Shown here: positions 18,334 to 39,541 of the stretch, in pieces
Position numbering within the stretch: position 1 is the stretch's first letter
Layout: every line of letters begins with the position of its first letter
Assembly: GCA_035529375.1 (NCBI GenBank)
Contig: DATKWU010000009.1
Coordinates: forward strand, 289,111-353,110
Direction: 5' to 3'
Source: Patescibacteria group bacterium
GTDB lineage: Bacteria > Patescibacteriota > Microgenomatia > PFEM01 > JAHIFH01
Length of the DNA: 64,000 bases
Position numbers and translations under genes: made by a program
The notes under the pieces: generated by a model
Databases searched by the model: none
What the model was told of the DNA's origin: nothing
The model's input: only the letters and a program-made list of their open reading frames with translations

Positions 18334-19413
18334 TTAAAAATGTTCTTGAGTAGGCTTCAAATACTCTGAAGAAATAGCTGGGAGAGTAAGAACAGCTTGA
18401 TAGCGATTACTATCTCTTAGAGTGACGTCACCTTTTAAAAGAAAAACTGGCTGGTGATATTCTTGAACTTCAGTGGTTTCGTAATAGGCAATTGAAACCG
18501 AGGAGATTTTGACTTCTCGGATTTCTTCTGGAAAAGGGATGATTTTATAGTCTCCGCTTTCAGTCATTAATTCAATGATTTGAGCTTGACCCTCTTTAAT
18601 TTCGTTGATAACTTCTTCATAAGATTTAAGAGGATATTGACTGATGACTTCCTGGTCTGTTTGGTGAAGCGAGAAAAAGAGATTAAGGAGATTGCCTTGG
18701 TTATCAACTTTAGCTTCAAGTAAATTTCGAACTTGACCAATGCCAACTAGAGGATAGCCATTAAGACTGGATTTAAAAGTGATATTAAAAATAGTGGCTT
18801 GATCAAGATTGATAACTGGGTTTAATTCCATTCCTACAGGAACAAAGCCGGTCATTACTTCCACCTCTGGCTTACTGGCAGTTAGGCCCCAGGTTTTAAT
18901 TTTTTCGGCTACTAGATCACCAATTTTGGTAGAACTAGTGGTTTGATTTTGGACTAAAGGACTTTTGCCGATAAAAGAAAATTGACCAGAAGAAAGATTG
19001 ACTTTAAGGTAATTTTCTTCCTCTCGCCAGATAAGAAAGTTTCCTTCTTTTCTTTGTTGTTCTTCGGGTGTTCCTAGAAAACCAAGGTCAACAATCATTT
19101 TCGAAAGACGAGAGAGAATTTCTTCCTGGGCGAATTTTTTGATTTGATAAACCGCTAGGGATTTAGGGAAACTGGCAAAATCATTTTCTGAGAGTAAAAC
19201 ATCGTAAATTGGTTCTTTACCCAGTGGTTGACTTAACTCTGATTGGGGTTGAGATAGAGAACCAAATTGAGGTGTTGGTAGGGGCTGAGAAGAAGGAGAG
19301 GTTGGTCGATAGATAAACCGGATGGCCAAAAGGCTGACCACGATAGTGGCTAGTAAAATGAAAAGCCAATAACGTTTAAAAAAATTAAGAATGTTTTCTT
19401 TTTTTATTGACAT
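18334..19413 (-). CDS. Hypothetical N-terminally TM-anchored extracytoplasmic protein (last gene of the T4SS-like operon; possible VirB8/PrgL-position protein)
   Basis: N-terminal TM WLFILLATIVVSLLAIRFIY, then a P/S-rich linker and a ~300-aa domain. The functional guess rests only on synteny with prgI-prgJ-prgK-prgL-type operons. Confidence 0.45.
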   Translation of the reverse strand: MSIKKENILNFFKRYWLFILLATIVVSLLAIRFIYRPTSPSSQPLPTPQFGSLSQPQSELSQPLGKEPIYDVLLSENDFASFPKSLAVYQIKKFAQEEILSRLSKMIVDLGFLGTPEEQQRKEGNFLIWREEENYLKVNLSSGQFSFIGKSPLVQNQTTSSTKIGDLVAEKIKTWGLTASKPEVEVMTGFVPVGMELNPVINLDQATIFNITFKSSLNGYPLVGIGQVRNLLEAKVDNQGNLLNLFFSLHQTDQEVISQYPLKSYEEVINEIKEGQAQIIELMTESGDYKIIPFPEEIREVKISSVSIAYYETTEVQEYHQPVFLLKGDVTLRDSNRYQAVLTLPAISSEYLKPTQEHF

Positions 19414-21932
19414 AGAGGTAAACCTTGACAGGCTTCGTCGACGCTGTGATATTCGCAGCTGTCACTACAAATTAAATAATCACAAGGATCAGGCGTTTTA
19501 CCGCCATCAATAAAGCAGTTTAATTCACCGCAGCTACTAAAGCCAAGGTGGAGGTGACAACCAGTTGATCTGGTGCCCGTAGAGCCAATGTAGCCGATAA
19601 TTTCGTCTCGCTCAATTGTTTGACCAGGACTAACTTCCCAGGACTCTAAGTGGGCGTAAAGACTATAGAGACCGTTGTGTTTAATAACCACATAATTACC
19701 ATAACCATCGGCTCGACCAGCGGCCTGGATAGTGCCTTTGGCGGTCGGATAAACAGCAATTCCACAGGAACTGGTTTTGGGCTGAGGTGTCACAATATCA
19801 ATACCAGTGTGATATTGACAGCAAGGAATGGCGGCAACAGGGTTGCTGCGGTAACCAAAATTTGATGAACAATAAGCAGCATTTCTAATTGGCCACTGAA
19901 AACCTAGACCAGCTGGAGGTTTGATAACCGGTGGTTCTTTTGGTGGTGGATAGGCTTGACTTATTTCTGTTGGGCCGATGGGAAGGATAAAAGCACCGGC
20001 GGTCGTCATAACAATAAAAAAGGTTAAAACCATGGAGGTACCAATTGTGCCCACCACTAGCAAAATAATGGCGCTACTAGAAATGGGGGCAACTGTTAAG
20101 GAGGTGAAGAAAGCAATTACGCCACCACCCAAGCCACCGACAATCGAACCAGCGCTGGCAACTCCCCAACCAATTAAACCAATAATCCCGACCGTAGCTA
20201 CTCCGACGCCAATAGCAACTAAAGGTCCAGAAAAGGAAAAGAGAGCGGCGATGCCGATGCCACCAAAAGCAAGGGCTAAAGATTTTTCTGGATCTCTAAG
20301 GACGGATTTGATTCCATCCCAGATACCTTGAAGACGAGCTTTGATAAAGTCGATGGCTTTACCAACCGCGAGACCAATGACTGTCCCTACTCCAGGCGCT
20401 AAGGCGGTTCCAGCGGCAGCAGCACCAAATTGAACACCTAACTTGGTGGCAATCCAAGTAGCGGCCTTAGTTACTAATTTACTGCTTAAGATTTTTTTGG
20501 CAATCGGGGTGAAAAATCTTCCCAACGACTTTTGGTAAAGAGTGACACCTAATTGTTTAAAGGATTCAAAACGACCAAAAGAAATGAATTTAATAATTCG
20601 GTTCGGTAAAGTGAATCGAATTATGTTTTTACCTGGACCAACGGTTATGGTTTCATAAATTCTGCTCCCTAGACCGATCTTATTTAGAACCTGATGGAGT
20701 CCCCAAGAGTAACCGCTTTTTTCTGACCAATCAGGAGCAGGTGAGGTTTGGTAAAAAATACCTGAGGCTTCATCTTGGGCAAGATGAAAGCCGGTTCGTT
20801 TGGGAAAGCTATACCACTGTTTGAGAATAGAGGCGGCCGGTTTATCTTGATAGTAAAAGGTTCTATCCGGACGAACGATTTTGATTTTTTGTTGGGCGCG
20901 GAATTTAAGGCCTTTATCGTTTAAATATCTGATAATAGGGTCACTGTCTTTTAAACCTAATTCTTTTAGCTTACTAATGGTGGTTTCAATATCTTCAGAA
21001 AAAACTCCTTTTTCAATCATTTCCCGCCATTCGGGGGTCATTTCAGGTGTTCCTGCCGCGATTCTCATTATGCCGACTGGTACGGCATAGGGAATTCTCC
21101 TGACATAAGAAACGCCCGCTTGGGGTTGGAGTAAAGAATAGAGAGTTAAGGAGGCGACACCATCGGTTTCGAGATTTAATTGTCTAATAATATCTTCAGG
21201 TAGTTTCAGATCTTCTGGTTTGATTGTTTTATCAGCAACGGCAGTCGCTTTCGCGATTCTTTCTCGAGGGGTTATAGCAACTTCTCTTGCTTGTTCTAGA
21301 GTATCTTTAGAAGCTTCTTCAACAAAATTTTCGGCAACAACTTTTGGTTCTTTCTCTCCAATCCTTCTTAAATTTTGGCTAATTTCTTTTTTGGTTTGGA
21401 CAAGGATTTGGTGATATTCTTCTTCGGTCAAAGCAACCTTAAGAGCGACAGGTTCGAGTTTGTCAGTAATGTTTTTGGTGATTTCTTCAGTGACTGCCTC
21501 TTGAAGGAGAGGATTATCTCTAAATTTTTCTGTGATTTTTTCAGATTGTTCGCCAATTTCCTGGGCAATTCTCTGCTGAAGAAGTTTAAATCTTTCTCGA
21601 TATTCAGGTGGGGCTTTTTCCGACTCTAGAATTTGACGTTTCTCTAGATATCGCTCGTAATCTTCTCTTAATTCTCGGACTTTAATGGGATCAAGAAGGC
21701 TGGTGTCTAGAACTTTATCACGGTCAGCTAGAAGATCAGCAATTTTATCAATTAGTTTGATAAGGAAGTCTTTGTCTTTGGGGCTAATATCAAGACTTTG
21801 AGCGGCGAAGACAACTTCGTTTTTGGCTTCGCCTTCATCTCCAAGTTCAGCCGGCCAGGTTCCCAATTGAAGAAAAAAAGCCAAACGTTGAATATGTTGG
21901 TAATACTCTTGAAGCTCTTCTTTATTCATCAA
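19404..21932 (-). CDS. Large membrane protein with a C-terminal M23 (LytM-type) peptidase domain; candidate T4SS-associated cell-wall hydrolase
   Basis: N-terminal coiled-coil, then Gly-rich TM helices (GAAAAGTALAPGVGTVIGLAVG..., IGIAALFSFSGPLVAIGVGVATVGIIGLIGWGVASAG). C-terminal M23 motifs YHTGIDIV, GNYVVIKHNGLYSLYAHL and GSTGTRSTGCHLHLG. Confidence 0.7.
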   Translation of the reverse strand: MMNKEELQEYYQHIQRLAFFLQLGTWPAELGDEGEAKNEVVFAAQSLDISPKDKDFLIKLIDKIADLLADRDKVLDTSLLDPIKVRELREDYERYLEKRQILESEKAPPEYRERFKLLQQRIAQEIGEQSEKITEKFRDNPLLQEAVTEEITKNITDKLEPVALKVALTEEEYHQILVQTKKEISQNLRRIGEKEPKVVAENFVEEASKDTLEQAREVAITPRERIAKATAVADKTIKPEDLKLPEDIIRQLNLETDGVASLTLYSLLQPQAGVSYVRRIPYAVPVGIMRIAAGTPEMTPEWREMIEKGVFSEDIETTISKLKELGLKDSDPIIRYLNDKGLKFRAQQKIKIVRPDRTFYYQDKPAASILKQWYSFPKRTGFHLAQDEASGIFYQTSPAPDWSEKSGYSWGLHQVLNKIGLGSRIYETITVGPGKNIIRFTLPNRIIKFISFGRFESFKQLGVTLYQKSLGRFFTPIAKKILSSKLVTKAATWIATKLGVQFGAAAAGTALAPGVGTVIGLAVGKAIDFIKARLQGIWDGIKSVLRDPEKSLALAFGGIGIAALFSFSGPLVAIGVGVATVGIIGLIGWGVASAGSIVGGLGGGVIAFFTSLTVAPISSSAIILLVVGTIGTSMVLTFFIVMTTAGAFILPIGPTEISQAYPPPKEPPVIKPPAGLGFQWPIRNAAYCSSNFGYRSNPVAAIPCCQYHTGIDIVTPQPKTSSCGIAVYPTAKGTIQAAGRADGYGNYVVIKHNGLYSLYAHLESWEVSPGQTIERDEIIGYIGSTGTRSTGCHLHLGFSSCGELNCFIDGGKTPDPCDYLICSDSCEYHSVDEACQGLPLCQ

Positions 21933-21947
21933 TTAAATAATAGCAGA

Positions 21948-23885
21948 TTACAACGGCGTTATCTCGGTTTTTTCTTCTCGGTCGGTGGTTTTGCTTTCTT
22001 GACTTTCGGTTTCCTTAGCTTCCTCTATTTTAAGTAGCTCCTCGGGTTTAGAGGTGATTAATTGGTGTTCTTCTTTTGAGGCAACCACTCTGATGGCAAC
22101 ATGATTAGGACCGGCAAAGAAAATACCTTCGCCGACATCAGCGCTTAAGAGAAGGTGTTTTTCACCCTCAGAGAGATAAAAGATTTCAGCAACCTTATCA
22201 ATAGCAGCCGGTGACATTTTCATTAAAGTTTGAATTGAAGAGTTTTGGATAATGGCTTTACCGTGTTCGGAAACCAGGAAATCCTCAACGTCTTGGGTAA
22301 TGGTAGTTAAGCCCAGATAATATTTTCTGGCTCTTTTGGCAATTGAGTAAAGGAAGTTGGCCGAATCTGGATACTGCATTAGATACCAAGCCTCATCAAC
22401 TATCAAAATTCTTTTTTTCATTTCTTTTTTGACCTTGGTCCAAATGTAGTCCAGAATAATAAACATGGCAATTGGTCTTAAAGCGTCTTCTAGATCCCTA
22501 ATCGAAAAAACAGTGAATTTATTTTTAATGTCCACGTTTGAGCGTTGATCAAAGATACCAGAGAAGGACCCTTTGACAAATTTTTCAATCCGGTCGGCCA
22601 AGGAGGAAGCTTCAGGCTCTTCCATACCTCTTAAAGCCTTATATAAATCTTCCATTAAAGGCGGTTCTTTTTTCTGGGTGGCTGGGTCTGGGGTAATCCC
22701 TTTCATTTTGTAAGTTAGGATTAAAGCTCGATCAAGAACCGCTTCTTCAGTGGCTGAAAGGTTGCCCATAATGACTTTAAATAGAGAGTGCAGAGAAAGA
22801 ATTTTTAGGCCTAATTCGTTCTCGCCTTCTTCATAAATCGCTGAGAGATCAAAAGGGTTGATTTTCGAGGGTGAATTAAAACCAAAGGTAATGTATTCAC
22901 CGCCAACTGCTTCGGCTAAAACTTTATATTCAGATTCGGGGTCAATGGCGATAATCTCCGTACCAAACAAAAGAGAACGTAAGGCTTCAAGTTTGACCAT
23001 GTAAGATTTCCCGGCTCCTGACTTGGCAAAGATGACTGAATTGGCGTTTTCCAGTGTAAAGCGGTCGAAAACAACCAAAGAATCATTATGTTCGTTAATT
23101 CCATACATGATCCCTTCATTGGCCGTTAATTCCGAGGAAGTAAAGGGAAAGGTGGTGGCCAAGGAAGTGGTATCCATATTTCGGGTGATCATCAGTCGGT
23201 CGACACAAGTTGGGATGGTAGCTCGAAAACCATCTTCCATTTGAAGAGTGGCGTGTTTAGAAATAATTAATAAAGAACCAAGAGCTGATTCAATTTCTTT
23301 GGAGGCTTGATTTAGTTCTTCGAGTGAATCGGCCGGAATGGTGATGTAAAGACCGAATTGGAAGAAACGTTCGGCACCTTTAACCAGCTGCTCTTGGAGA
23401 GTCCGGGCATCTTCAAGTTTGGCTTGGGTTGCCGGATCAACAATCTTACCACGCTGCATATCGGTTTGAATTTCCGCTTCCATTTCGGCAATCTTACGCC
23501 GCAATTCATCAAGGATTGATTTACCTTCAACCGGATAAACGTACATCGCCACGTCCAGGGAGTGATCAAAATTAATCAAGGGCGCTAGCCAATTAGCGGC
23601 CACAAAACGGGGATAGCCGGCCACAAATAAAGTTCTGAAATATTTATTGCCTATTTTCAAATGATCAAAGTCAACCTCAAGCGCACCAGGAGCAATCACG
23701 TCCTGAACAGAAACCATGCCTTCAGCGAGTTGGGTAATTGGGTCGACGGGTAGTTTGGTCACCACTTGAGGTGATTCAGGCATTTTTCCTTTTTCTTCTG
23801 GTTTACCCTGGGCCAAAGGCAGGCCAATCTTTGAAGACCCCTTTTTACTAATATCGGCGATTTTGTTAAGACCCGGTATTTTCAT
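21948..23885 (-). CDS. virB4: VirB4/TraE/PrgJ-family type IV secretion ATPase
   Basis: Walker A FAKSGAGKSY, Walker B ILIVDEAWYLM. N-terminal region GALEVDFDHLKIGNKYFRTLFVAGYPRFV is typical of Gram-positive VirB4-like ATPases. Size is similar to pIP501 TraE. Confidence 0.8.
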   Translation of the reverse strand: MKIPGLNKIADISKKGSSKIGLPLAQGKPEEKGKMPESPQVVTKLPVDPITQLAEGMVSVQDVIAPGALEVDFDHLKIGNKYFRTLFVAGYPRFVAANWLAPLINFDHSLDVAMYVYPVEGKSILDELRRKIAEMEAEIQTDMQRGKIVDPATQAKLEDARTLQEQLVKGAERFFQFGLYITIPADSLEELNQASKEIESALGSLLIISKHATLQMEDGFRATIPTCVDRLMITRNMDTTSLATTFPFTSSELTANEGIMYGINEHNDSLVVFDRFTLENANSVIFAKSGAGKSYMVKLEALRSLLFGTEIIAIDPESEYKVLAEAVGGEYITFGFNSPSKINPFDLSAIYEEGENELGLKILSLHSLFKVIMGNLSATEEAVLDRALILTYKMKGITPDPATQKKEPPLMEDLYKALRGMEEPEASSLADRIEKFVKGSFSGIFDQRSNVDIKNKFTVFSIRDLEDALRPIAMFIILDYIWTKVKKEMKKRILIVDEAWYLMQYPDSANFLYSIAKRARKYYLGLTTITQDVEDFLVSEHGKAIIQNSSIQTLMKMSPAAIDKVAEIFYLSEGEKHLLLSADVGEGIFFAGPNHVAIRVVASKEEHQLITSKPEELLKIEEAKETESQESKTTDREEKTEITPL

Positions 23886-24798
23886 CTTTATTAACAGCTT
23901 GTTTAACTAAACCATTAATTTGATTTCTAATTGAATCTTGATTTGGGATTATCTCCTCGGTTGTTGATGATTGGGCGGTTGAGTCGATTGGTGTTGTCTC
24001 AATCTTAATTTCTCCTTGAAGTGAGGTTGTTCTTCTAGGTGGTTCGGCTTGGCTTTCTGTTGTTTCCGGCATTGTTTTTGTTATTGAGCTTCTTTCTTGG
24101 GTTGTTTCCATAGCTGCTTCCATGATTGGTGTCTGGTATTGCTTAGAACCAGTCATTTGCTGACCTTTAACTTCAGGATTGTAAATATTGAAGTAGAGCT
24201 GAATAAGTTCCTGAGTGTTAAGCTGTTTGCCTTTGAGACCTAAACGAGCGAGTTGTCTTAAAATATGATCCCTTTTAGGATAGAGGTTGGTCTTGGCTTT
24301 TTGGAGAATGTAGCTCTTATCAAAAGGGAGTTTCTTTCTAGAAAAGGTAGAAGTGAGGATCTGTTTGACGCCTAGTTCTAAGGCACTCATGGGAATGACG
24401 AGATAAAACTTTTTATCAAGAACATTGTTTCTGGCAACCGTTTCTTCGATAAACTGGCGATATTTTTGAATCTGAATTTTAATCTCGTCTTTGGTTTCTT
24501 TTTCTTCGGCTCTTTTGATTAATTTAAGATAGCCGGAAATATCTTTTCTTTGGGAGCAAAGAACGATTTGAATAGAAAAAGTGAGTGAGTTTAGAAGGCC
24601 GGCATAAGCGTAGATGGTGGCTTCCTGTTCTCTTTCTGAAAGGAGACCAAAGTTAATCGCCGTGGTAGCAATCGCCAAACAACAGCTACCGTCTTTGAGA
24701 ATAACAATCCCGTCTTGGATATCCTCAATATCAAGATGTTCTTGAGTTGAAGCTCTAATCGGTATTTTGGTTGGATCAAGTGTTTTGGGCAGGTTCAT
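23866..24798 (-). CDS. Hypothetical protein, translationally coupled upstream of VirB4 (T4SS-associated)
   Basis: 310 aa with no TM helices. Overlaps the virB4 start by 20 nt and the upstream gene by 23 nt, suggesting operon coupling. Confidence 0.5.
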   Translation of the reverse strand: MNLPKTLDPTKIPIRASTQEHLDIEDIQDGIVILKDGSCCLAIATTAINFGLLSEREQEATIYAYAGLLNSLTFSIQIVLCSQRKDISGYLKLIKRAEEKETKDEIKIQIQKYRQFIEETVARNNVLDKKFYLVIPMSALELGVKQILTSTFSRKKLPFDKSYILQKAKTNLYPKRDHILRQLARLGLKGKQLNTQELIQLYFNIYNPEVKGQQMTGSKQYQTPIMEAAMETTQERSSITKTMPETTESQAEPPRRTTSLQGEIKIETTPIDSTAQSSTTEEIIPNQDSIRNQINGLVKQAVNKDENTGS

Positions 24799-25765
24799 GG
24801 ATTTTTCCTTTGGTGCGAATCTCTAAGGGTTCGACGATCGCGCCAGTAAGATTGGTTTTAATAATATCAAATTGATAACCTTCTTTTTCAGCTTCAATTT
24901 CGTATTGACCGTTATCTAGGGGAGTGACGCTTCGAAATTGGCCTAATTTATTAGTTTTCAGAGCCCTGACTGGAATTCCCTGAGTATTTCTGATTTCTAT
25001 AATCGCATTTTCAATAATTTTGCCCTCAAGGTCAAGAACCATTCCCACAAGAGTATTAGGTTGAGTAGGAGCTTGAGGAAAAGGTAGTTCAGGACTGAAT
25101 TTAGCTTCCACCGTGGGTTTTCTAGGTTGAGCTGGTTGTTTGGGTAAGACAAAAGGTTTTCTTTTGGGAGTACTTGTTTTTTGAGGATAGCTAATTTTTG
25201 GTTTAAAAGTTGTTTCAGGCTTGGTTATTGGTTGGAAAGGTTGCCGAATGGGCGGAATCTTTTCTGTTGGTTGAGCCATATTCGCCGGCATTTTGGTTAA
25301 TTGGAACATATTAAGAGATTTTTTAATAAAGTTTTCTTCTTGTTGGTCAAGTTGACTTTGAGATTCGGTTGGGAGAGTTGAGAGGTATTCTCTTAATTGT
25401 TTTTTATTTGGTGGTGGGGCGGCCTTTTTTTGAAAAACAACCTTTTTGTAACCAGTTTTGAAGATATCAGGCTCCTTAGCTTGTCTTTCCCAGACGAATT
25501 GAGTTGGTGAGAAAATAGCTTTGATAAAGGCAACAATCCACTTATCAAGCGGCCTTTCCTGAATCGGCATAAAAGCCATGGCAAAACCAAGAAAAACAGC
25601 CAGAGCCACCAAAGGCCATTTAATGATTGGCACGAGGGGAGTGGCATAGAGAATCAAGCCAATAATACAACCACCAGCCAAAAAGCCAAATTGTCGAACG
25701 GTCATATCACCAACCAGACGGAATTGGTAAGAAGAAATGTGTTGTGGTACTGGATGTTGTTCCAT
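24776..25765 (-). CDS. PrgI/VirB3-like small-TM-domain protein with a Pro-rich linker and a C-terminal extracellular domain
   Basis: N-terminal YQFRLVGDMTVRQFGFLAGGCIIGLILY plus a second TM (WPLVALAVFLGFAMAF), resembling PrgI-family (VirB3 analogue) topology. It is the first gene of the minus-strand operon. Confidence 0.4.
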   Translation of the reverse strand: MEQHPVPQHISSYQFRLVGDMTVRQFGFLAGGCIIGLILYATPLVPIIKWPLVALAVFLGFAMAFMPIQERPLDKWIVAFIKAIFSPTQFVWERQAKEPDIFKTGYKKVVFQKKAAPPPNKKQLREYLSTLPTESQSQLDQQEENFIKKSLNMFQLTKMPANMAQPTEKIPPIRQPFQPITKPETTFKPKISYPQKTSTPKRKPFVLPKQPAQPRKPTVEAKFSPELPFPQAPTQPNTLVGMVLDLEGKIIENAIIEIRNTQGIPVRALKTNKLGQFRSVTPLDNGQYEIEAEKEGYQFDIIKTNLTGAIVEPLEIRTKGKIHEPAQNT

Positions 25766-25885: not shown

Positions 25886-28192
25886 ATGGCTGGAGAGGAA
25901 ACATATATTCCAAAACCTAAAGGTCTGGAGGAGATGACTGGAGGTAGTTTACCAGAAGGAAGAGACGAGGAAATTAGGAGAATGGTTGAAGAAAGACCAA
26001 TTAGCGGTGGTCAGGATGTGCCTGAGGATGAAGGCAAGGTTGATATTAGTGAATTAGTTAAAGCCCAGGTAGAAGCGGCGGTCGCTAGTGTGAGAACGGA
26101 ATTATCAGACCAAATTTCTGGTTTACAAACCAAACTTCAAGTGAGTGAAGCCCAAAAAGAGGCTTTAGAAAAGAGAATGGAAGGTTTAGAGGGTATCGAG
26201 GGGCTAAAAAGACCACTTAATAAAATTCTTAAGGCAATAGAGAGAACGGCTGTGGGAGCAGAAAGAACTGCGGCTAGTGGACAGGCTTCGTCTGAAAGAC
26301 TTTTAATCCCCGAATCAGAAAGGCCCAAAACAAAAGAAGGCTGGGCTGATTTGGCAAGAGAAGAATTAACAGTTTTAAGAGATCGAGGTGAATCCCCTTA
26401 TTCTCCTTTTCTATGGGGAGAGAGACCTGAAGTTAAAAGAGTTCTTGAGAGTATTCCTAAAAAAGATTGGGAAGGTATTTCAGCTAAAGAATGGGAAAAA
26501 TTACAAAAAGAATTAGAAAAAGAGATTTGGGTGATTCAAAAAGAAGACGGTTTAGCAACCCAGTGGTCTCAAAGGTCTAGTAATTTAAAAGCGTTAGGAG
26601 AATTAACTGACCTTATTTCGGCCACGGGAGTAGCCTTAGATCCCGAAAAACTAAATGCCTTATCTAGTCTTGCTCCAGCCAAGACACCCGAGTATCTAAA
26701 AGAAGAAGGAAAAGAAATTATTCCTGAGGGAGAAAGTATGTCTATCCAGGTTAGTAGAGCCCTTCACATTTACGCTAAATATTTTGGTGTTTGGGCTGAG
26801 GAGATAGCTAATGAGATGGATAAACCAGGGGGAATAGAAGATAGACTAAGAACAAGGTGGCTAAAAGGTGACTTTAGCAAGGATAAAAAGAAATGGGGGA
26901 AAGCGGTTGATGACGAGATAGATGCGTTTGATTATCGAAATAATTCTAAACTAAGTAAAGCGGGTAAAGAAGTTTTAGAGAGATTAGGATTCGGTAGTGA
27001 CGGAAAAATTCCTTATAAAACTTTACAAGAAATTTTTAAAGAGATGCCTGATGAGGCTAGTAAGGAAAGGAAATATCAAGATTTGAAGAAGCAGATTGAT
27101 GATGCTGTTAAAGCTAAAGATACAGGTGGTCTTTCTCTGGCTGAACTTTTCGATAGAAATATATTTTGTCAAAATATTAATGTAAGTGAATCAAGATATA
27201 CTCAGTGGTTAGTGGCAATGCTCGCTGGTAGTGAATATGCTGGTGAGTCGGCTATGAGATTTTTAAGATATACCGGTGAATCAGGGGAGATGAATACAAC
27301 TCATGTTCCAGGCGCTTGGGTGAGTGATGGTTTTACTCGTATTCCTTGGATAGAAAGAAGAAGGTTGTCAGAAGCGAGGAAGAGGCGAGTCCGTGGCCCT
27401 AATATAACTTTAGGCAGGTATAAATTTCCTATTGAAAGAGAGGGAAAAGAAAGAGGTCTATGCCACAGTTGGGTAAGAGAAGCAGAAGTTAAAATTGGAG
27501 ATAAAAAGATGAAAATAATTGAGCTTTTAAGAGGCGATAATCGTTGGTTTCATGAGATTCCTTGGGACCAATTGGGTCAAGAGACTTATATTAGTAATTT
27601 TACTTTGGCTGTCACTCACGGTGTGAATATTTTTGGATTACTTACCAATCCTAATATTGAATTAACTGGAAGAGAGGGATTACTTAGTCAAGCAGAAGAA
27701 TTAAAAAAATTAAATAAATCGATGCAATATTCATTTAAAGACTGGGAAAGTGGGGAAATCGCTCTCAAAAAAGAAGACGGGACACCAATAGATGGTGATG
27801 GTGGTTGGGAGAAGAGAGAGAATTGGGCTCAATATTGGTTAGAAAAAGTTAAGTCTATAAAAGGATTGTCTGCGTTTGGGAAAAGTCTATGGAGTCCTTG
27901 GTTTACTTTTTACCTTGGGGCAATTTATGAACATCATCCGAATCGAAATCTTCCCCAAAGGGAAATTCATTCCCCCACCGGAATCTATAGGAAGAGAAAA
28001 ATTCCCCATTCTCGAAGATGGAATGAAGAAAGAGAGACGGCTGAGGGAGGGCGTATCTATAGGGAAAATTCGGTTGCCGATTTTATCGGTGAGGGAGTAG
28101 AGCAAGAAGTTTTAACTCCAGGGGAAGCAGAACTTCTTATAGCTGTTTGCCAGATATCTAAAGTAAAAAAAGCCGATATTTTGGGTCTTTAA
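25886..28192 (+). CDS. Hypothetical 768-aa soluble protein encoded on the opposite strand inside the T4SS-like locus
   Basis: No TM segments; charged and coiled-coil N-terminal third. I recognise no ATPase or relaxase motifs. Confidence 0.5.
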   Translation: MAGEETYIPKPKGLEEMTGGSLPEGRDEEIRRMVEERPISGGQDVPEDEGKVDISELVKAQVEAAVASVRTELSDQISGLQTKLQVSEAQKEALEKRMEGLEGIEGLKRPLNKILKAIERTAVGAERTAASGQASSERLLIPESERPKTKEGWADLAREELTVLRDRGESPYSPFLWGERPEVKRVLESIPKKDWEGISAKEWEKLQKELEKEIWVIQKEDGLATQWSQRSSNLKALGELTDLISATGVALDPEKLNALSSLAPAKTPEYLKEEGKEIIPEGESMSIQVSRALHIYAKYFGVWAEEIANEMDKPGGIEDRLRTRWLKGDFSKDKKKWGKAVDDEIDAFDYRNNSKLSKAGKEVLERLGFGSDGKIPYKTLQEIFKEMPDEASKERKYQDLKKQIDDAVKAKDTGGLSLAELFDRNIFCQNINVSESRYTQWLVAMLAGSEYAGESAMRFLRYTGESGEMNTTHVPGAWVSDGFTRIPWIERRRLSEARKRRVRGPNITLGRYKFPIEREGKERGLCHSWVREAEVKIGDKKMKIIELLRGDNRWFHEIPWDQLGQETYISNFTLAVTHGVNIFGLLTNPNIELTGREGLLSQAEELKKLNKSMQYSFKDWESGEIALKKEDGTPIDGDGGWEKRENWAQYWLEKVKSIKGLSAFGKSLWSPWFTFYLGAIYEHHPNRNLPQREIHSPTGIYRKRKIPHSRRWNEERETAEGGRIYRENSVADFIGEGVEQEVLTPGEAELLIAVCQISKVKKADILGL

Positions 28193-32941: not shown

Positions 32942-33246
32942 TATTCAAACTTAAACTCAAGCAATCCTTCGATGCCAGTAAAGTCAGCAATGAATTTAAG
33001 AATGAACCAAGCAATGATAATCAAGACTAGACCAAGAATGGCATAGGTAATTGTGTTCCTTGCTGATTCAACTGCCTTAGGATCACCACCAGAAGTCAAC
33101 CATTTGAAGCCACCAAGAATAATCATGATGAAAGTAGCAATTCCGGCTAAACGAATAGCCAAATTTAGAAGATTCCACATGATTTGAATTAGGTCTGAAA
33201 TTCGAGCTGGATCTTCCATTAAACTAACTTTACAACACCAAAACAC
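32941..33246 (-). CDS. VirB2/TrbC-like pilin-type small membrane protein (paralog 1 of 8)
   Basis: TM1 (GIATFIMIILGGFKWL), loop TSGGDPKAVESARN, TM2 (ILGLVLIIIAWFILKFI). Shares a family motif with the other seven paralogs. Confidence 0.5.
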   Translation of the reverse strand: MFWCCKVSLMEDPARISDLIQIMWNLLNLAIRLAGIATFIMIILGGFKWLTSGGDPKAVESARNTITYAILGLVLIIIAWFILKFIADFTGIEGLLEFKFE

Positions 33247-33716: not shown

Positions 33717-34115
33717 TTATTTGATTAGATAAGGCGAAATATCAAAAAAGAGATTCTCGAGCGCCTCAATCCCAAAGAAACTCCCAATTAATTTGATTAT
33801 AGCAAAGACAGCAAAAAGAGCAATTAGACCAACAATCGCACTGACGACTTTACCTCGGGCTGACTCTAGAGCCGCCTTGTCGCCGCCAGCGGTCATCCAT
33901 TGAATCGCCCCAACCACCAGAAAAATGAAAGCAACGATAACCCCGACGATAAGAAGAATGGCGATAATATTACCCAGGAAAAGGTTAATAATATCAAGGC
34001 CTTCACCAGTACCAACCAGAGGATTAAGAGCAGGATTGTAAATACCTTCTTGGTATTCGCCTGCGCCTCCTCCTTCACCTGGTGTCGCAGCAGCTAAATA
34101 GATTTTTTCTATCAT
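33717..34115 (-). CDS. VirB2/TrbC-like pilin-type small membrane protein (paralog 3)
   Basis: WMTAGGDKAALESARGKVVSAIVGLI between two TM helices. N-terminus MIEKIYLAA is shared with paralog 4. Confidence 0.5.
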   Translation of the reverse strand: MIEKIYLAAATPGEGGGAGEYQEGIYNPALNPLVGTGEGLDIINLFLGNIIAILLIVGVIVAFIFLVVGAIQWMTAGGDKAALESARGKVVSAIVGLIALFAVFAIIKLIGSFFGIEALENLFFDISPYLIK

Positions 34116-34117
34116 TT

Positions 34118-34507
34118 TTAGGGCCCTAGTTGTTCAATAATTTCTTGAGGATTAAGAATGTCAAATCCTAAAAAATTGCCGATAAGAGAAATAAGAGCAT
34201 AGGCGAGAACAATAACAATCAGGCCAGTCAAGCCATTACTGATTCTTTTAGTAGCCCCTTCAACTGCTTTAGAATCACCACCAGCCGTTAAATAGCCAAA
34301 AGCGCCGATAACAAGAATGAAGAAGAACCAAATACCGGCAATAACGGTCATAATGCCGATGATTTTTGAAAGGATTGAAGTGAAGTGTCTGGCGGCAACA
34401 CCAACATTACTGAATCGGTAGAGAGCTCCCCAGGGACCGAAACCTTCACTGGGGTCTCCGCCAATGGGACCAAGATCAACTTCAGCGGCAAAGATTTTTT
34501 CTATCAT
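34118..34507 (-). CDS. VirB2/TrbC-like pilin-type small membrane protein (paralog 4)
   Basis: YLTAGGDSKAVEGATKRISNGLTGLI between two TM helices. N-terminus MIEKIFAA. Confidence 0.5.
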   Translation of the reverse strand: MIEKIFAAEVDLGPIGGDPSEGFGPWGALYRFSNVGVAARHFTSILSKIIGIMTVIAGIWFFFILVIGAFGYLTAGGDSKAVEGATKRISNGLTGLIVIVLAYALISLIGNFLGFDILNPQEIIEQLGP

Positions 34508-34510
34508 TTT

Positions 34511-34864
34511 TTAAGGCCCGTAAATTTTCGGATTAAGAATGGCGCTGGCATTGCCAAATAACAAATAACCAAAAATGGCAGCTAGAACAAAAGAGCCCAG
34601 AATAAACAAAAGCCCCATCAGTGATTGCCAGATTCTCGCCCAAGCTGCCCCCATTTTTTTAGGATCATCACCCGCACTTAAAAAACCATAGCCGGCAATG
34701 ATTAAGTTAAAAAAAGCAAAAAGACCGCCGACAACAATTAAAAGACGGATAATATTATTCAAAAACTTGATCATCCCAAAATTTGGCCCAGGCTCGCCAG
34801 CATAGCCAGTAATCCCCATTTTGGTAAAAGGATTTTCAATGGCTCCAAAAATTTCGAAAATCAT
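34511..34864 (-). CDS. VirB2/TrbC-like pilin-type small membrane protein (paralog 5)
   Basis: FLSAGDDPKKMGAAWARIWQSLMGLL between two TM helices. Confidence 0.5.
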   Translation of the reverse strand: MIFEIFGAIENPFTKMGITGYAGEPGPNFGMIKFLNNIIRLLIVVGGLFAFFNLIIAGYGFLSAGDDPKKMGAAWARIWQSLMGLLFILGSFVLAAIFGYLLFGNASAILNPKIYGP

Positions 34865-35229
34865 ATGCCTAAACCCCCACTAAGAAAATCAATACCGGTA
34901 ATAACTTTAATAATTTGTATTATCCAATAACTGGCAAAAATAATCAAGAAACCAATTAGAGCGGCGGTCACCGCCTGGGTTCCTTTAGCCGCTCCCTCAG
35001 GATTTTCCTGGCCAGCGCTGATAAGGAACATCAACCCACCACCAATCAGAAGAAAGAAGAGAATAATACCAGCTAAAACATAGATGTTGGGTAGAAGATT
35101 GGAGATAATGCCCCCCAAAGTCATACTCGTACTCAAACCTGAGTGTTCGCCAAAAAGGGCTTTGCCAATTTCGAAATTCTGCATCACATTTAGTCTATCA
35201 ATATCAAATTTAAGTGTCAACTTTTGCAA
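34861..35229 (-). CDS. VirB2/TrbC-like pilin-type small membrane protein (paralog 6, divergent loop)
   Basis: FLISAGQENPEGAAKGTQAVTAALIGFL between two TM helices. 4-nt overlap with paralog 5. Confidence 0.45.
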   Translation of the reverse strand: MQKLTLKFDIDRLNVMQNFEIGKALFGEHSGLSTSMTLGGIISNLLPNIYVLAGIILFFLLIGGGLMFLISAGQENPEGAAKGTQAVTAALIGFLIIFASYWIIQIIKVITGIDFLSGGLGI

Positions 35230-36326
35230 GTGGTCAAGATTTTGTTATACTTCTCGCCATGGAAGCAAAGGCTTATCTTCAAGATTACGTTAAAAAAACA
35301 GAGCCACTATTAGATTCCTTTTTTAAAACTAAGGAGAAAGAAGCGGCTGAGATTTCACCCCTGGCCGCAGAAATGATGAGAATTTATCGTCAGTTTATGG
35401 GTGGCAAAAACATTCGTGGAGCTCTGGTCAAATTAGGTTATGAATGTTTTGGTGGTAAGAATGAAAAAGCGATTCTTGAAGCCTCTTTAATGGTGACTCT
35501 GACTCACGCTTTTATTTTAATCCATGATGACGTGATGGATCGGGATGTCTTAAGAAGGAACAAACCAACCATTCATGTTCAATATAGTAATCTCTACAGA
35601 AAACGTCATCAAGATAAAAGAGATCAGGCCGAGCATTATGGTCTGAGTATGGCGATTGATCTTGGTGATATTGGTTTTACTCTGGCCCATCTCCTTTTGG
35701 TTGATACCGATTTTAGTGATGAGATTAAAACCAGAGTTTTGAGAAGATTTAATCAACAGATTTTGACAACCGCTTTTGGTCAGGCTCTTGATGTCACTCT
35801 TGAAGCCACTGATAAGCTCTCAGAAAAAGATATTACCAAGATTCATCATTACAAAACAGCCGACTACACGGTTACTGGTCCCTTACAGTACGGGGCTTTG
35901 TTCGCTGGTGCAAATGAAAAGGAAATAAAAAAGATAGGGAAATTTGGTTTACCAGTTGGGATTGCTTTTCAGTTGCGGGATGATGAATTAGGTCTTTTTG
36001 CTGATGAAAAAATTTTAGGCAAACCAATTGGCAGTGATGTTAAGGAAAACAAAAACACAATTCTTCATCTTAAGGTTCTAGGATTAGCTAAGGGAAAAGA
36101 GAAACAATTTATTCAACAAGTTTATGGCAAGAAGAATCTGACTAAAAAAGAACTGGAAAGAGTCAGGCGGATTACTGAAGAGACTGGGGTTTTAGCTTAT
36201 TCCCAAAAAATGGCGAAGAGTTTGGTTGAAAAAGGCAAGAAATATATTTCCCAAATTACTCGGAAACCTGAATTAGCCGATACTTTAAGAAAAATGGCTG
36301 ATTTTATGATTGAACGCGAGAGTTAG
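35214..36326 (+). CDS. Polyprenyl diphosphate synthase (trans-isoprenyl diphosphate synthase; GGPP/FPP-synthase-like)
   Basis: First Asp-rich motif LIHDDVMDRD and second FQLRDDELG. Confidence 0.85.
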   Translation: MSTFASGQDFVILLAMEAKAYLQDYVKKTEPLLDSFFKTKEKEAAEISPLAAEMMRIYRQFMGGKNIRGALVKLGYECFGGKNEKAILEASLMVTLTHAFILIHDDVMDRDVLRRNKPTIHVQYSNLYRKRHQDKRDQAEHYGLSMAIDLGDIGFTLAHLLLVDTDFSDEIKTRVLRRFNQQILTTAFGQALDVTLEATDKLSEKDITKIHHYKTADYTVTGPLQYGALFAGANEKEIKKIGKFGLPVGIAFQLRDDELGLFADEKILGKPIGSDVKENKNTILHLKVLGLAKGKEKQFIQQVYGKKNLTKKELERVRRITEETGVLAYSQKMAKSLVEKGKKYISQITRKPELADTLRKMADFMIERES

Positions 36327-36328
36327 GA

Positions 36329-37120
36329 GTGGTAGAATCCAGTCCGATGCCGAAAAAAACTTCTAAGACCAAAATAGATAAAAAAAATCTTCCCAGACAT
36401 ATTGGCATTATTATGGATGGTAACCGACGTTGGGCTGCAAAAAGAGATTTGACACCAATGGAAGGCCACCAAGCCGGAGTCAAAGCCCTAATCAAAATTG
36501 TGGATTATTGTTTGGATCTGAAGATAGAAACCTTAACGATTTATGCTCTCTCAACCGAAAATTGGCGGAAAAGAGCCAAGAAAGAAGTGGAAGGACTTTT
36601 TAACTTGTTGGTCAGAGCCGTGGAAGAGAAAAAAGAAGAGTACAAAGAAAAAGGCGTCAAGTTAGTGGTTTTAGGCAATTTTCAGGCTTTTCCTAGGAAA
36701 GTCGTTCGGGCGATTGAAGAGATGTTAGCCATTGTTAAAACTCATGAGAGATTAAAGGTCAATGTCGCTTTAAATTATGGCGGTCGAGACGAAATTATTA
36801 GGGCCATCAAGAAAATTGTTGAAGATGAAGTTCCGCCCAAAAAGATTAATGAAAAAATGTTTGGTAAATTCCTTTACACTAATGGCGAACCAGACCCCGA
36901 CTTAATTATTCGGACTGGCGGCGAATCAAGGCTTTCTAATTTTCTTCTCTGGCAATCTAGCTATTCCGAGCTTTATTTTACTAAAACTCTTTGGCCAGAC
37001 TTTTCTCCAGCCAAGCTCGACAAAACAATTCTTGCTTATCAAAAGCGGACCAGAAGATTTGGTGGGGGTACGTTTGCTATCTACAGGAAGAAAGCTAAAA
37101 AATCTTCAAGCCAAAAATAA
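36329..37120 (+). CDS. uppS: Undecaprenyl-diphosphate synthase (cis-prenyltransferase)
   Basis: HIGIIMDGNRRWA and RTGGESRLSNFLLWQSSYSELYF are UppS hallmarks. Confidence 0.9.
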   Translation: MVESSPMPKKTSKTKIDKKNLPRHIGIIMDGNRRWAAKRDLTPMEGHQAGVKALIKIVDYCLDLKIETLTIYALSTENWRKRAKKEVEGLFNLLVRAVEEKKEEYKEKGVKLVVLGNFQAFPRKVVRAIEEMLAIVKTHERLKVNVALNYGGRDEIIRAIKKIVEDEVPPKKINEKMFGKFLYTNGEPDPDLIIRTGGESRLSNFLLWQSSYSELYFTKTLWPDFSPAKLDKTILAYQKRTRRFGGGTFAIYRKKAKKSSSQK

Positions 37121-37415
37121 CTTCCAAAATTTGAATCAGCCAATAGGCAACAAAAATAATAACAAAGCCGATGACAGCGCCCGTGAGTCTTCCTTTAGCT
37201 GACTCCATTTTCTTTGGGTCACCAGCCGAAGTCATCATTTCAAAGCCAGCCCAAATCAGGATTAAAAGCAAAGCCAAACCAGCCAAAGCAAAAATATAGG
37301 GGATCAGGTCATTGATAATATTGCTAATATTCCCACTGGCAAATGCAAAGCTAGGTGGATCATTAATTGATTCGCCGCCAGGAAAAGTTAAAGCTAATTT
37401 TTTCATTTTATTCAA
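37095..37415 (-). CDS. VirB2/TrbC-like pilin-type small membrane protein (paralog 7)
   Basis: MMTSAGDPKKMESAKGRLTGAVIGFV between two TM helices. Confidence 0.5.
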   Translation of the reverse strand: MNKMKKLALTFPGGESINDPPSFAFASGNISNIINDLIPYIFALAGLALLLILIWAGFEMMTSAGDPKKMESAKGRLTGAVIGFVIIFVAYWLIQILEVIFGLKIF

Positions 37416-37761
37416 ATCCTGGGATAGCTAATATTTCCACTCCAATAATTCTTAAAATAAAAACAGCAAAAACAATTAGTAAGAGACCAGAGATCGCCGA
37501 AGTGATGAGCTCTTTACCTGATTGGACTTTTTCCGGATTACCTCCAGAAGTTAAGACCTGAAGCCCTCCAAAGATAATTAAGAGAGTAGCAATCCCACCG
37601 CCAATACCAATGGCGAAAGCTAGAATTCTACTAACGAAAGCTTGGGGACTTTCAACATTAATTGGCCCAATGGCGGTATTAATAATTGCTTCAGCTAGGG
37701 TTGGACTGGCGAGAATAAAAATTAAAGCAAACAATAAGACGGTCACAGCTAGTTTTTTCAT
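37408..37761 (-). CDS. VirB2/TrbC-like pilin-type small membrane protein (paralog 8)
   Basis: Clear signal peptide MKKLAVTVLLFALIFILASPTLAEA. The mature part is TM1 - VLTSGGNPEKVQSGKELITSAISGLL - TM2, a two-TM pilin-like topology. Confidence 0.5.
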   Translation of the reverse strand: MKKLAVTVLLFALIFILASPTLAEAIINTAIGPINVESPQAFVSRILAFAIGIGGGIATLLIIFGGLQVLTSGGNPEKVQSGKELITSAISGLLLIVFAVFILRIIGVEILAIPGFE

Positions 37762-37837
37762 CAGCTAAAGTTTAACATAATTCCTTTTCAAGAGGCAACC
37801 TAAGTTGAATTAGCCTCTATGATATACTTTTATCAGA

Positions 37838-39541
37838 ATGAAAAAGGTAAAAGTTTTGATCAGTCTCTTAATGGCTTCTTCAATTTTAATTTTTCTTTTT
37901 TCTCATTCTTTTATTGTTCAGGCTGCTTGTCCGGAAAGTGATTATGATTGTCAATTTGAGGAAATTCAAAAAATCATTGATGCTCTCGCCCCAGCCCACG
38001 AACAAAACAAAACCGAATTAGCCAAACTTAAAACTCAATTAGCCGATCTTCAGAAAAGGCTTGATGCCATTACCTTGGGTTTGAAACAGCTTGAGAAGAG
38101 TATTCTTGAGAGGGAGGTTGATTTGGCTTTTCAGGAAAAAATTTTAGCGGCTAAGGTAAGAAGTTATTATATTCAAAGCCAAAAATCTTCTCCCTTTCTC
38201 TTGTTTTTGTCTTCGAATAATGCTCAAGAACTGGCTCGAGAATTAGCTTTCCGGCTTAAAGTTGTTAATCAAGACAGATTGACGATTGTTCAAATTTCGG
38301 CTGATTTGAAGAAACTTCAAGAGGATAAGATTACTTATGAGCGAAGTCAAGCGAGTTTAGCCCAAGCCCAAAAACAGGTTGATGATCGGGCCACTTTTTT
38401 AGAAGGAGAAGTCGAGAAGGTTGAGTCAGCCATTGCCTCTTTGACCGCTAAGCAACAACAAATATTAGCCCAAAAATTAGCCAGTTTAAATCTTCCCACC
38501 ACCTTAGGTGCTGGGCCTTTGGTTTGTGTTGATGATCGAGATCGAGATCCTGGTTTTCGTCCCGCTTTTGCTTTTTTTACTTACGGGATTCCTCATCGAG
38601 TGGGGATGAATCAATACGGAGCTTACGGTCGGGCCAAGGCCGGTCAATCATACCAAGAGATTCTTAAAATTTATTACGAAGGGATTACGATTGAAAAGAA
38701 ACCCAACGTTAGTCTCCAAGTTCAAGGTTATGGAGCGATGCCTTTAGAACAGTATTTATTAGGGATTTACGAGATGCCTGAAAGTTGGCCAATCGAAGCC
38801 CAAAAAGCTCAAGCGGTGGCGGCCCGGTCTTATGCCTTGGCCTATACTGACAATGGGTCTAAAGAAATTTGCACCAGTCAACAATGCCAAGTTTATAAGG
38901 GAGGCAATAAAGGCGGTAATTGGGAAGCAGCGGTCAAAGCAACAGAAGGCGAAGTTGCCGTTCATAGCGGTCAGGTGATTACTGCTTGGTATGCTTCAAC
39001 CGCTGGTGGTTACACTTTTTTTTCTTCTGATGTCGGTTGGAGTCAGCGGCCTTGGACCAAAAGATTACGAGACACCAGTGGTGAAGTCAGTAGTTTTGCT
39101 GATCTTCAGGGTAAAGCCTATGATAAAGACTCACCTTGTTTTTATGCGGCTCAAGGTTGGCGGAAAGAGTATGCTAGTTCTGCCTGGTTAAAATCTGAAG
39201 AAGTGACTGATATTATCAATGTTCTGCTTTTAGCTAAAGCTGATCCTTCAAGTCAACAACACCTGGCCCAGGTGGATAAACCTAATCCTGATGGAGTGGA
39301 TACTTGGGATGCTGGTCGAGTTAAACAAGAATTAAAGAGTCGAGGGATTACCCCTTTTGATAATGTCTCTAGTGTTTCTGTCGGTTGGGACAATGGTCTG
39401 GGAAGAACAACCTCTGTCAGTGTTTCTGGCAGTGCTGGTAATCAAACTTTTGATGGTCCGGAGTTCAAAAACTTTTTTAATCTTCGAGCGCCGGCTAATA
39501 TCCAGATTGTTGGGCCGTTGTTTAATGTTGAGAAAAAGTAG
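37838..39541 (+). CDS. Secreted SpoIID/LytB-domain protein with an N-terminal coiled-coil (putative peptidoglycan lytic enzyme / amidase enhancer)
   Basis: Signal peptide. Coiled-coil (LADLQKRLDAITLGLKQLEKSILEREVDL). SpoIID/LytB motifs GMNQYGAYGRAKAGQSYQEILKIYY, AQKAQAVAARSYALAY...CTSQQCQVYKGG and WYASTAGGYT. Confidence 0.75.
   Translation: MKKVKVLISLLMASSILIFLFSHSFIVQAACPESDYDCQFEEIQKIIDALAPAHEQNKTELAKLKTQLADLQKRLDAITLGLKQLEKSILEREVDLAFQEKILAAKVRSYYIQSQKSSPFLLFLSSNNAQELARELAFRLKVVNQDRLTIVQISADLKKLQEDKITYERSQASLAQAQKQVDDRATFLEGEVEKVESAIASLTAKQQQILAQKLASLNLPTTLGAGPLVCVDDRDRDPGFRPAFAFFTYGIPHRVGMNQYGAYGRAKAGQSYQEILKIYYEGITIEKKPNVSLQVQGYGAMPLEQYLLGIYEMPESWPIEAQKAQAVAARSYALAYTDNGSKEICTSQQCQVYKGGNKGGNWEAAVKATEGEVAVHSGQVITAWYASTAGGYTFFSSDVGWSQRPWTKRLRDTSGEVSSFADLQGKAYDKDSPCFYAAQGWRKEYASSAWLKSEEVTDIINVLLLAKADPSSQQHLAQVDKPNPDGVDTWDAGRVKQELKSRGITPFDNVSSVSVGWDNGLGRTTSVSVSGSAGNQTFDGPEFKNFFNLRAPANIQIVGPLFNVEKK

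Follow-up and report, generated by a model that had tools for sequence, protein, structure and literature searches.

The 64,000-nt window analysed here, a stretch of contig DATKWU010000009.1 from a Microgenomatia bacterium of the Patescibacteria, carries at positions 18334-39541 a locus that is very probably the chromosomal, origin-proximal type IV secretion system (T4SS) of Patescibacteria in its Microgenomates-class form, derived from the conjugation machinery of monoderm bacteria (mating-pair-formation class MPF_FATA) and repurposed. Its parts list comprises a PrgI/TrsD/VirB4 module, a platform protein with a predicted VirB6 fold, eight VirB2-like pilins and three envelope-active enzymes. 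These are an M23 peptidase that has a YycI/YpeB-like partner, a protein with a SpoIID domain, and a Cys-rich protein resembling glycoside hydrolase clan A (GH-A). Because the strongly conserved core locus has neither a coupling ATPase nor a relaxase linked to it, we propose that the machine would serve host-cell contact and the exchange of proteins and nutrients, not conjugation. The initial annotation of this DNA had read it as a Gram-positive-style T4SS or pilus locus, and the family searches, the VirB6/DotA fold predicted for one protein, the nearest relatives and published descriptions all bear this out.

The coordinates of the open reading frames (ORFs), given throughout as positions within the window, were reproduced and agree with an independent gene annotation of this contig. 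The features of the locus are the following (aa, amino acids; TM, transmembrane):

18334-19413, minus strand: TM-anchored protein of YycI/YycH/YpeB (PepSY-like) type, 359 aa (p359), assigned by fold comparison
19404-21932, minus strand: membrane M23 metallopeptidase, 842 aa (p842), Pfam Peptidase_M23 4e-20
21948-23885, minus strand: VirB4-type ATPase, 645 aa, NCBIfam conju_CD1110 400.5 bits, cutoff 325
23866-24798, minus strand: TrsD-like protein, 310 aa (p310), sub-cutoff NCBIfam matches to VirB4 N-terminal models
24776-25765, minus strand: PrgI/VirB3-like protein, 329 aa, Pfam PrgI E 1e-8
25886-28192, plus strand: hydrophilic slot protein, 768 aa (p768), no Pfam or NCBIfam family
28371-29909, minus strand: VirB6-like polytopic membrane protein, 512 aa (p512), predicted VirB6/DotA fold
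29957-32941, minus strand: secreted GH-A-like Cys-rich protein, 994 aa (p994), weak Glyco_hydro_cc match, signal peptide
32941-33246, minus strand: pilin 1, 101 aa, PF18895 2.5e-11, two hydrophobic helices
33320-33697, minus strand: pilin 2, 125 aa, PF18895 5.5e-7, in-register alignment with its paralogs
33717-34115, minus strand: pilin 3, 132 aa, PF18895 1.1e-4 (under gathering score), in-register alignment with its paralogs
34118-34507, minus strand: pilin 4, 129 aa, PF18895 1.8e-8
34511-34864, minus strand: pilin 5, 117 aa, PF18895 2.5e-4 (under gathering score), in-register alignment with its paralogs
34861-35229, minus strand: pilin 6, 122 aa, PF18895 2.8e-4 (under gathering score), in-register alignment with its paralogs
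35214-37120, plus strand: polyprenyl diphosphate synthase and UppS, Pfam polyprenyl_synt 1e-53 and Prenyltransf 3e-80
37095-37415, minus strand: pilin 7, 106 aa, PF18895 1.9e-14 and TrbC/VirB2 PF04956 9e-7, both over gathering scores
37408-37761, minus strand: pilin 8, 117 aa, PF18895 1.6e-10, clear signal peptide, three hydrophobic segments including the signal peptide
37838-39541, plus strand: secreted SpoIID-domain protein, 567 aa, Pfam SpoIID 3.5e-20

The minus-strand run PrgI-p310-VirB4-M23-p359 is tightly packed or overlapping, with intergenic gaps of -23, -20, +15 and -10 nt. A second minus-strand unit lies upstream of PrgI and holds six pilins (35229-32941), p994 (32941-29957) and p512 (29909-28371). 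Pilins 7 and 8 (37761-37095) are found beyond the plus-strand polyprenyl synthase and UppS genes, followed by the plus-strand SpoIID gene (37838-39541). The gene order first proposed was right for the run from PrgI to p359 and wrong in placing the VirB6-like gene, p994 and the pilins downstream of PrgI; it also passed over the plus-strand 768-aa gene that separates these from PrgI and the interruption of the pilin array by the polyprenyl synthase and UppS genes.

The best curated model for the VirB4 ATPase is a VirB4 of the MPF_FATA type from Firmicutes (CD1110, from a Firmicutes integrative and conjugative element, ICE), scored over the cutoff; the alignment covers profile positions 179-733 only, the usual N-terminal domain being absent. 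Other Pfam matches are P-loop_TraG (4e-29), AAA_10 and CagE_TrbE_VirB, and both the Walker A (AKSGAGKS, residue 287) and Walker B (ILIVDE, residue 493) motifs are present, as had been claimed. A scan of 185,579 species genomes for relatives of this VirB4 returned more than 433, of which the best 80 are the loci (L001-L080) compared below; across these, VirB4 is 67-98% identical.

The protein that the initial annotation listed as a coupled 310-aa ORF, without interpretation, supplies the missing domain. The p310 gene shares 23 nt with PrgI and 20 nt with VirB4, and its NCBIfam matches, all sub-cutoff, are to VirB4_plasma (positions 128-292, E 3e-8), TrsD (3e-5) and CD1110 (positions 11-123). 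Within its family, 54 of 55 members match TrsD and the N-terminal region of VirB4_plasma (best E 1e-13, all under curated cutoffs). There is also a weak precomputed Pfam TraC-like match, while a comparison of the family profile with Protein Data Bank (PDB) sequences returned nothing useful. On these sequence matches p310, which has homologs in 75 of the 80 loci, is TrsD-like, a split-off N-terminal domain of VirB4. The PrgI/VirB3-like protein scores 36.1 bits against a Pfam gathering score of 27 and has the expected two N-terminal TM helices (hydrophobic block at residues 21-70), so that the profile searches agree with the first reading of both the ATPase and PrgI. Classical PrgI/VirB3 proteins are only ~100 aa long; here a Pro/Lys-rich linker leads to a C-terminal CarboxypepD_reg-like beta-sandwich (residues ~238-300, E 4e-7, just under the gathering score), which the charge distribution suggests to be cytoplasmic. 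Homologs of PrgI occur in 73 of the 80 loci, usually with both halves kept.

All eight small ORFs proposed to be VirB2/TrbC-like pilin paralogs match PF18895 (T4SS_pilin, E 2e-14 to 3e-4), four of them over the gathering score; TrbC/VirB2 is matched by two, one of these over the gathering score. Each has the VirB2-type architecture of two hydrophobic helices flanking an (S/A)GGDP loop, and the paralogs are 24-38% identical to pilin 1. Type IV pili or competence pseudopili are not indicated: no G/FxxxE prepilin motif was found in the small proteins, nor any PilB/PilT-like P-loop ORF in the window. The polyprenyl synthase and UppS genes are housekeeping genes embedded in the pilin array and probably not parts of the machine. 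UppS also adjoins pilins in L009 and L058 and is near the end of the locus in L075.

The polytopic membrane protein p512 had been called VirB6-like. We found no match to VirB6 at the sequence level, either in Pfam or with the family profile against PDB sequences, and because such profile searches gave nothing useful for p512 and p359, both were examined by fold comparison. The predicted structure of p512 has the VirB6/DotA fold, and on this model the protein is VirB6-like, giving the locus the VirB6 component of a T4SS. Following the paradigm of the R388 and pKM101 systems, PrgI and TrsD would keep VirB4 at the membrane, and the ATPase would pull pilins out of it and polymerise them on the VirB6 platform. 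The product would be a pilus or conduit that crosses the wall through a gap cut by the M23 and SpoIID enzymes.

Systems of this kind are already known from work published in 2023-2025, and nearly all ultrasmall Patescibacteria, the Candidate Phyla Radiation (CPR), carry one. Quinonero-Coronel et al. (2025, Microb Genom, PMC12102498) surveyed 3,035 genomes and report the architecture, the pilin arrays, the proximity to dnaA and the lack of a relaxase across 2,407 Patescibacteria assemblies. The Patescibacteria VirB4 clade is there nested in MPF_FATA, with TrsD and PrgI present; VirB6 is scarce in Microgenomatia by hidden Markov model (HMM) searches, VirB8 is rare, and hydrolases containing M23 domains occur. 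Pilin arrays of 2-11 genes, especially in Microgenomatia, and proximity to dnaA/dnaN are described, and relaxases are confined to a minority of Patescibacteria. The present locus shares with the Microgenomatia arrangement a VirB4 accompanied by TrsD as a protein of its own, PrgI/VirB3, an array of VirB2-like pilins, M23 hydrolases near virB4, the dnaA/dnaN proximity and the lack of a relaxase or type IV coupling protein (T4CP) near virB4, with no essential difference. VirB6 is rare by HMM in the Microgenomatia of the survey, whereas the conserved p512 of the present locus has a predicted VirB6/DotA fold; the YycI-like peptidase partner and the hypervariable divergent gene discussed below are not described in the available part of the survey.

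A second published counterpart is the origin-proximal T4SS of Southlakia epibionticum ML1 (SEML1_0006-0019), which, pilins included, is essential for epibiotic growth, resembles Gram-positive conjugative systems and has no recognisable coupling protein or relaxase (Wang et al. 2023, Cell, PMC10633639). Synteny with this Saccharibacteria system holds: the minus-strand order of PrgI, a ~300-aa protein (0009), VirB4 and a large membrane peptidase is the same, and both loci lie near the origin and have VirB6-like proteins and a PF18895 pilin array (PMC10633639). Unlike our locus, Southlakia has a lysozyme/CHAP protein (0006) where p359 stands here, a Hedgehog/DD-peptidase type domain in place of M23, an NTF2-like (VirB8-like) protein (0012) of which none was found in this window, VirB6-like proteins of ~1000 aa against 512 aa, and six pilins against eight.

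The genomic setting bears on whether the locus could be mobile. The genes at 13518-18326 are of oriC type, namely rnpA (15025-15363), yidC, jag/KhpB (with KH and R3H domains), dnaA and dnaN, and the T4SS begins no more than 10 bp from the dnaN stop codon. Given this adjacency and a minimum of the cumulative GC skew at ~14-16 kb of the window, we place the locus in the region of the replication origin. The order pilins, p994-like gene, VirB6-like gene, divergent gene, PrgI, TrsD, VirB4, (M23, p359), dnaN, dnaA, yidC is conserved across metagenome-assembled genomes (MAGs) of Shapiro-, Curtiss-, Woese-, Ames-, Gottesman- and Chisholmbacteria, and the synteny with dnaN, dnaA and yidC is fixed in most of the 80 loci. 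These best 80 include all MAGs named as Microgenomates or Patescibacteria, from the same six groups. No cultivated non-CPR organism is among them, and the other loci come from metagenome bins with implausible titles. Many MAG records with the locus are titled 'uncultured Gammaproteobacteria', 'Pseudomonadales', 'Bathyarchaeia archaeon', 'Clostridia bacterium' or 'Nevskiaceae', which are probably placeholder or wrong taxonomy labels. In the 49 loci with all markers, the median identity is 71% for VirB4, 52% for YidC, 48% for DnaA and 42% for DnaN. VirB4 is more conserved than DnaA and DnaN in 48 of these 49, among loci that were themselves picked by their VirB4 match. This constraint is unusually strong for a secretion ATPase. 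The GC content of the locus equals that of its flanks.

Given the conserved dnaN-dnaA-yidC setting and a VirB4 better conserved than DnaA, the locus is a strongly constrained core machine of the chromosome and not a mobile element. One alternative is an integrated or remnant conjugative element that passes DNA to other cells. In its favour are the homology of VirB4, TrsD and PrgI to conjugation proteins of Firmicutes ICEs and plasmids, a serine recombinase gene at 49739-51298 and the relaxases reported for a minority of Patescibacteria (PMC12102498). As the initial annotation had noted, however, relaxases and VirD4 coupling proteins are missing: no window ORF of at least 130 aa matches a Pfam or NCBIfam family of either, and the only genuine Walker A ORFs in the window are dnaA and VirB4. 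No integrase adjoins the locus, the nearest recombinase being ~10 kb off, past the housekeeping genes of the far flank (SmpB, transfer-messenger RNA (tmRNA), tRNAs, a ComFC-like gene, DnaG and RpoD). Together with an adjacency to dnaN-dnaA-yidC that is fixed across many candidate phyla, the conservation of VirB4 and the unremarkable GC content, this makes the conjugative element strongly disfavoured and highly improbable, and we reject it. The earlier view that the system is not for conjugation is supported to the extent that a locus with no coupling ATPase or relaxase nearby is probably non-conjugative.

With the Gram-positive conjugative T4SSs themselves (pCF10 prgI-prgJ-prgK-prgL, the Clostridioides difficile conjugative transposon (CTn) CD1110 type, pGO1 trs) the locus shares homologous PrgI, VirB4 and TrsD, a wall hydrolase after VirB4, a monoderm envelope and the absence of VirB7, VirB9 and VirB10. 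Those systems have a relaxase, a T4CP, an origin of transfer (oriT) and surface adhesins, sit on mobile elements and have no VirB2 pilins, whereas the present locus has pilins, lacks T4CP, relaxase and a VirB8/PrgL fold, and is a fixed chromosomal core locus. With the R388/Agrobacterium VirB systems (MPF_T) and DotA of Legionella Dot/Icm it shares VirB2-type pilins, the VirB6/DotA fold of p512 and the VirB3-VirB4 pairing; unlike them, it has no outer-membrane core complex, VirB5, VirB8, VirB11 or VirD4, and p512 has no VirB6 sequence similarity.

Several points weigh against the identification as a repurposed Patescibacteria T4SS. A VirB8-like (NTF2-fold) bitopic protein was not found, the positional candidate p359 having another fold; the VirB6 homology of p512 comes from a predicted structure; and four of the eight pilins fall under the Pfam gathering threshold. 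Membership of VirB4 in the Patescibacteria clade is suggested by its nearest relatives, and pilus formation and transport are here read from genes. A coupling protein may also be encoded elsewhere in the genome: VirD4-like genes are distant from virB4 in most Patescibacteria, according to the 2025 survey (PMC12102498), and one related locus, L071, has a T4CP-like gene next to PrgI.

The first of the envelope-active proteins, p842, fits the membrane M23 peptidase that had been proposed. It has a hydrophilic N-terminal part of ~500 aa, a multi-TM block (~505-654) and an extracytoplasmic Cys-rich M23 domain (residues 707-799) with intact HxxxD (HTGID, 708) and HxH (HLH, 793) motifs; 12 Cys lie beyond residue 660. 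M23 homologs are found downstream of VirB4 in related loci. p842 is likely the wall-opening enzyme in the role of PrgK/VirB1, as a functional analog and not a VirB1 homolog. In the closest relative, L001, whose VirB4 is 98% identical, two ORFs of 467 and 372 aa (3867-6547) take the place of a single M23 gene; a frameshift, a misassembly or a pseudogene could explain the split.

The next protein, p359, had been taken for PrgL (VirB8-like) from its position. Its model (predicted local distance difference test, pLDDT, 85.7) instead has a single N-terminal TM helix and three alpha/beta subdomains, and only 5coz and YycI were significant in Foldseek; the VirB8/PrgL-like assignment is therefore rejected in favour of a predicted YycI/YycH/YpeB-type fold. 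The p359 family profile gave nothing useful against PDB sequences, and a second homolog search with the family alignment gained only six distant sequences. The p359 and M23 genes have 10 nt in common. In Chisholmbacteria-like loci (L055, L062, L064 and L080, at ~3300-7750) p359 lies upstream of PrgI and VirB4 directly abuts dnaN, and in L055 and L064 an M23-like gene immediately precedes p359, so the pair has moved as a two-gene unit. The gene overlap and this joint relocation link p359 to the M23 peptidase, and we propose from synteny, fold and the analogy with YpeB-SleB and PepSY propeptides that p359 is a partner or regulator of that enzyme. Like YpeB and YycH/YycI of Bacillus, p359 has an N-terminal TM anchor and tandem PepSY/YycI-like extracytoplasmic domains, and like YpeB it is encoded beside, and co-inherited with, a cell-wall hydrolase. 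Unlike in the YpeB-SleB and YycH-YycI pairs, the presumed partner is M23 and not the SleB lytic transglycosylase or the WalK kinase, and there is no sequence similarity.

The giant protein p994 was initially described as a secreted glycosidase/Cys-rich protein. A signal peptide is present and 27 of its 28 Cys lie beyond residue 300, which makes the C-terminal two thirds Cys-rich. The glycosidase part of the description is supported less well: WNE (residue 125) and TEF (222) motifs are of clan GH-A type and spaced as in GH-A glycosidases, while the Glyco_hydro_cc matches are weak (Pfam E 0.0026; PDB 6uav E 0.36), so that a glycosidase-like nature is plausible. Divergent homologs stand at the equivalent position in L002, L003, L009 and L016. 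The SpoIID/LytB lytic protein claimed at the end of the locus does have a SpoIID domain, preceded by a signal or anchor segment (residues 1-31) and an N-terminal coiled coil, and is a putative peptidoglycan-cleaving enzyme. Its position among the genes would make it part of the T4SS, and in L058 a homolog is near pilins 7 and 8 and UppS. Three plus-strand genes (39586-42431) come after the SpoIID gene. They encode a membrane protein of 223 aa, a protein of 80 aa with two TM helices, and one of 642 aa with a single TM helix and, by a weak NCBIfam match, an NHL/beta-propeller-like C-terminal region; in L058 a homolog of the last is again a neighbour of SpoIID and pilins. All three are possible accessory components of the T4SS.

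The function of the Patescibacteria T4SS has been called 'completely unknown' in reviews, among them a 2025 FEMS review that treats this system, with effector delivery or uptake through a pilus as speculations (PMC12857230, PMC11665869). The role suggested in the initial annotation, DNA uptake or attachment to host cells, agrees with what has been speculated in print. Uptake would make the machine a ComB/Ced-like importer that uses the pilus to draw in host molecules, be it DNA, nucleotides or others, for a cell unable to make them, in line with published speculation on a nucleotide supply or uptake conduit (PMC11665869, PMC12857230). The VirB4 has a weak similarity to the archaeal DNA importer CedB (E 2e-12, 47 bits), a ComFC-like gene lies 4 kb past the locus (43469-44137), and the coupling protein normally needed by export systems is lacking. 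Yet CedB, at 46.6 bits, stays far under its cutoff of 700, CedD reaches 23.8 where 600 is required, and the best match remains a conjugative VirB4. Equivalents of CedA, ComB8, ComB9 and ComB10 were not found, nor was a DNA-binding or translocase component in the locus. In Southlakia, deletion of comEC abolishes competence and leaves the cells viable, while the T4SS is essential (PMC12857230); because viability survives the loss of ComEC, the essential role of the T4SS is not ComEC-dependent transformation. We consider an importer unlikely.

The most variable part of the locus is the p768 gene, which diverges from PrgI across a 120-bp spacer. A promoter/terminator consensus scan, barely over the shuffled expectation (50 versus 38.6; 24 versus 19.8), does no more than suggest divergent promoters in that spacer. 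p768 matches no Pfam or NCBIfam family, has no TM helix and has only 14 relatives among 1.84 billion cluster representatives. A divergent ORF of 354-1678 aa close upstream of PrgI, most often between the VirB6-like gene and PrgI, was found in 28 related loci (examples are 25886-28192, plus strand, in the window, L002:5622-7544, L009:6173-7999, L076:4044-6185 and ~25 further loci). These slot ORFs are mostly dissimilar to each other, and BLAST clustering left most as singletons. The L002 ortholog is undetectable by BLAST although the VirB4 there is 87% identical. The slot gene is usually an orphan ORF (ORFan) and evolves far faster than its neighbours. Only hhalign connected two of the groups: it aligned the p768 family with that of L002/L009 at 94% probability (E 1.4e-7) along some 70 residues (452-534). 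Iterative HMM searches from the p768 family added one further syntenic gene only, in L076. A Pfam scan of the 28 slot genes left ~24 without a domain and gave one with ClpB (L061:4135-7758, minus strand), one with PP2C and one T4CP-like gene. The last (L071:3071-5254, minus strand) is beside PrgI and has TrwB_AAD_bind, TraG-D_C and DUF87 matches and a Walker A motif (GKTGTGKS). Because of these members the slot is not one clean family.

A slot product acting as a substrate or host-specificity factor is a speculative reading of this pattern. It belongs to a wider alternative, that the main task of the machine is protein export, delivering for instance lytic enzymes or effectors to the surface or interior of the host cell, with p768 or p994 as cargo or host-specificity factors. 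Three wall-active enzymes in or at the locus fit this alternative, as does a fast-evolving hydrophilic protein in a conserved slot that has its promoter region in common with the PrgI operon, and effector delivery has been speculated in print (PMC10633639, PMC11665869). On the other side, the window has no T4CP for recruiting substrates, p994 and the SpoIID protein carry Sec signal peptides and would not need a T4SS for their export, and the slot is heterogeneous, with ClpB in one locus and a T4CP in another. Positively charged C-terminal tails are a feature of T4SS substrates. The tails of the slot proteins are slightly more positive than background (p ~0.009, uncorrected, against a crude ORF background), a weak signal that is not used as evidence because it is absent in p768's own family. 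Export as the main function is possible but doubtful, and host-cell contact with protein and nutrient exchange remains our preferred reading of the role.

A more specific idea, which we think rather improbable as a whole, is that the Microgenomates T4SS has swapped VirB8 for the co-inherited M23 peptidase and a YycI/YpeB-like regulator that would gate the opening of the wall, and that the p768 slot holds a fast-evolving host-specificity factor or substrate. If true, genome data could point to the molecules that this essential secretion system handles. No T4SS before that of Patescibacteria had been shown to be essential to its own bacterium, and the system is probably at the heart of the host-borne life of a large fraction of uncultivated bacteria. 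To this the window adds one well-resolved Microgenomates example and modest increments that leave the published picture unchanged, namely a VirB6 fold where HMMs rarely find VirB6, a YycI/YpeB-like peptidase partner at the position expected for VirB8, and the hypervariable divergent slot.

Beyond the locus, the interval 42433-45748 holds SmpB followed directly by tmRNA (tag GNPKVANYAYAYA), the ComFC-like gene, which encodes a double zinc ribbon and a phosphoribosyltransferase, and six tRNA genes (four Ser, two Arg). The large serine recombinase gene (minus strand) lies at the edge of a stretch of lower GC content (0.35-0.37; 49739-58000) that also contains genes for a proteasome-like/DUF6941 protein (53380-55107) and an ORF of 957 aa without any family match. 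This stretch is possibly a small integrated element that has nothing to do with the T4SS.

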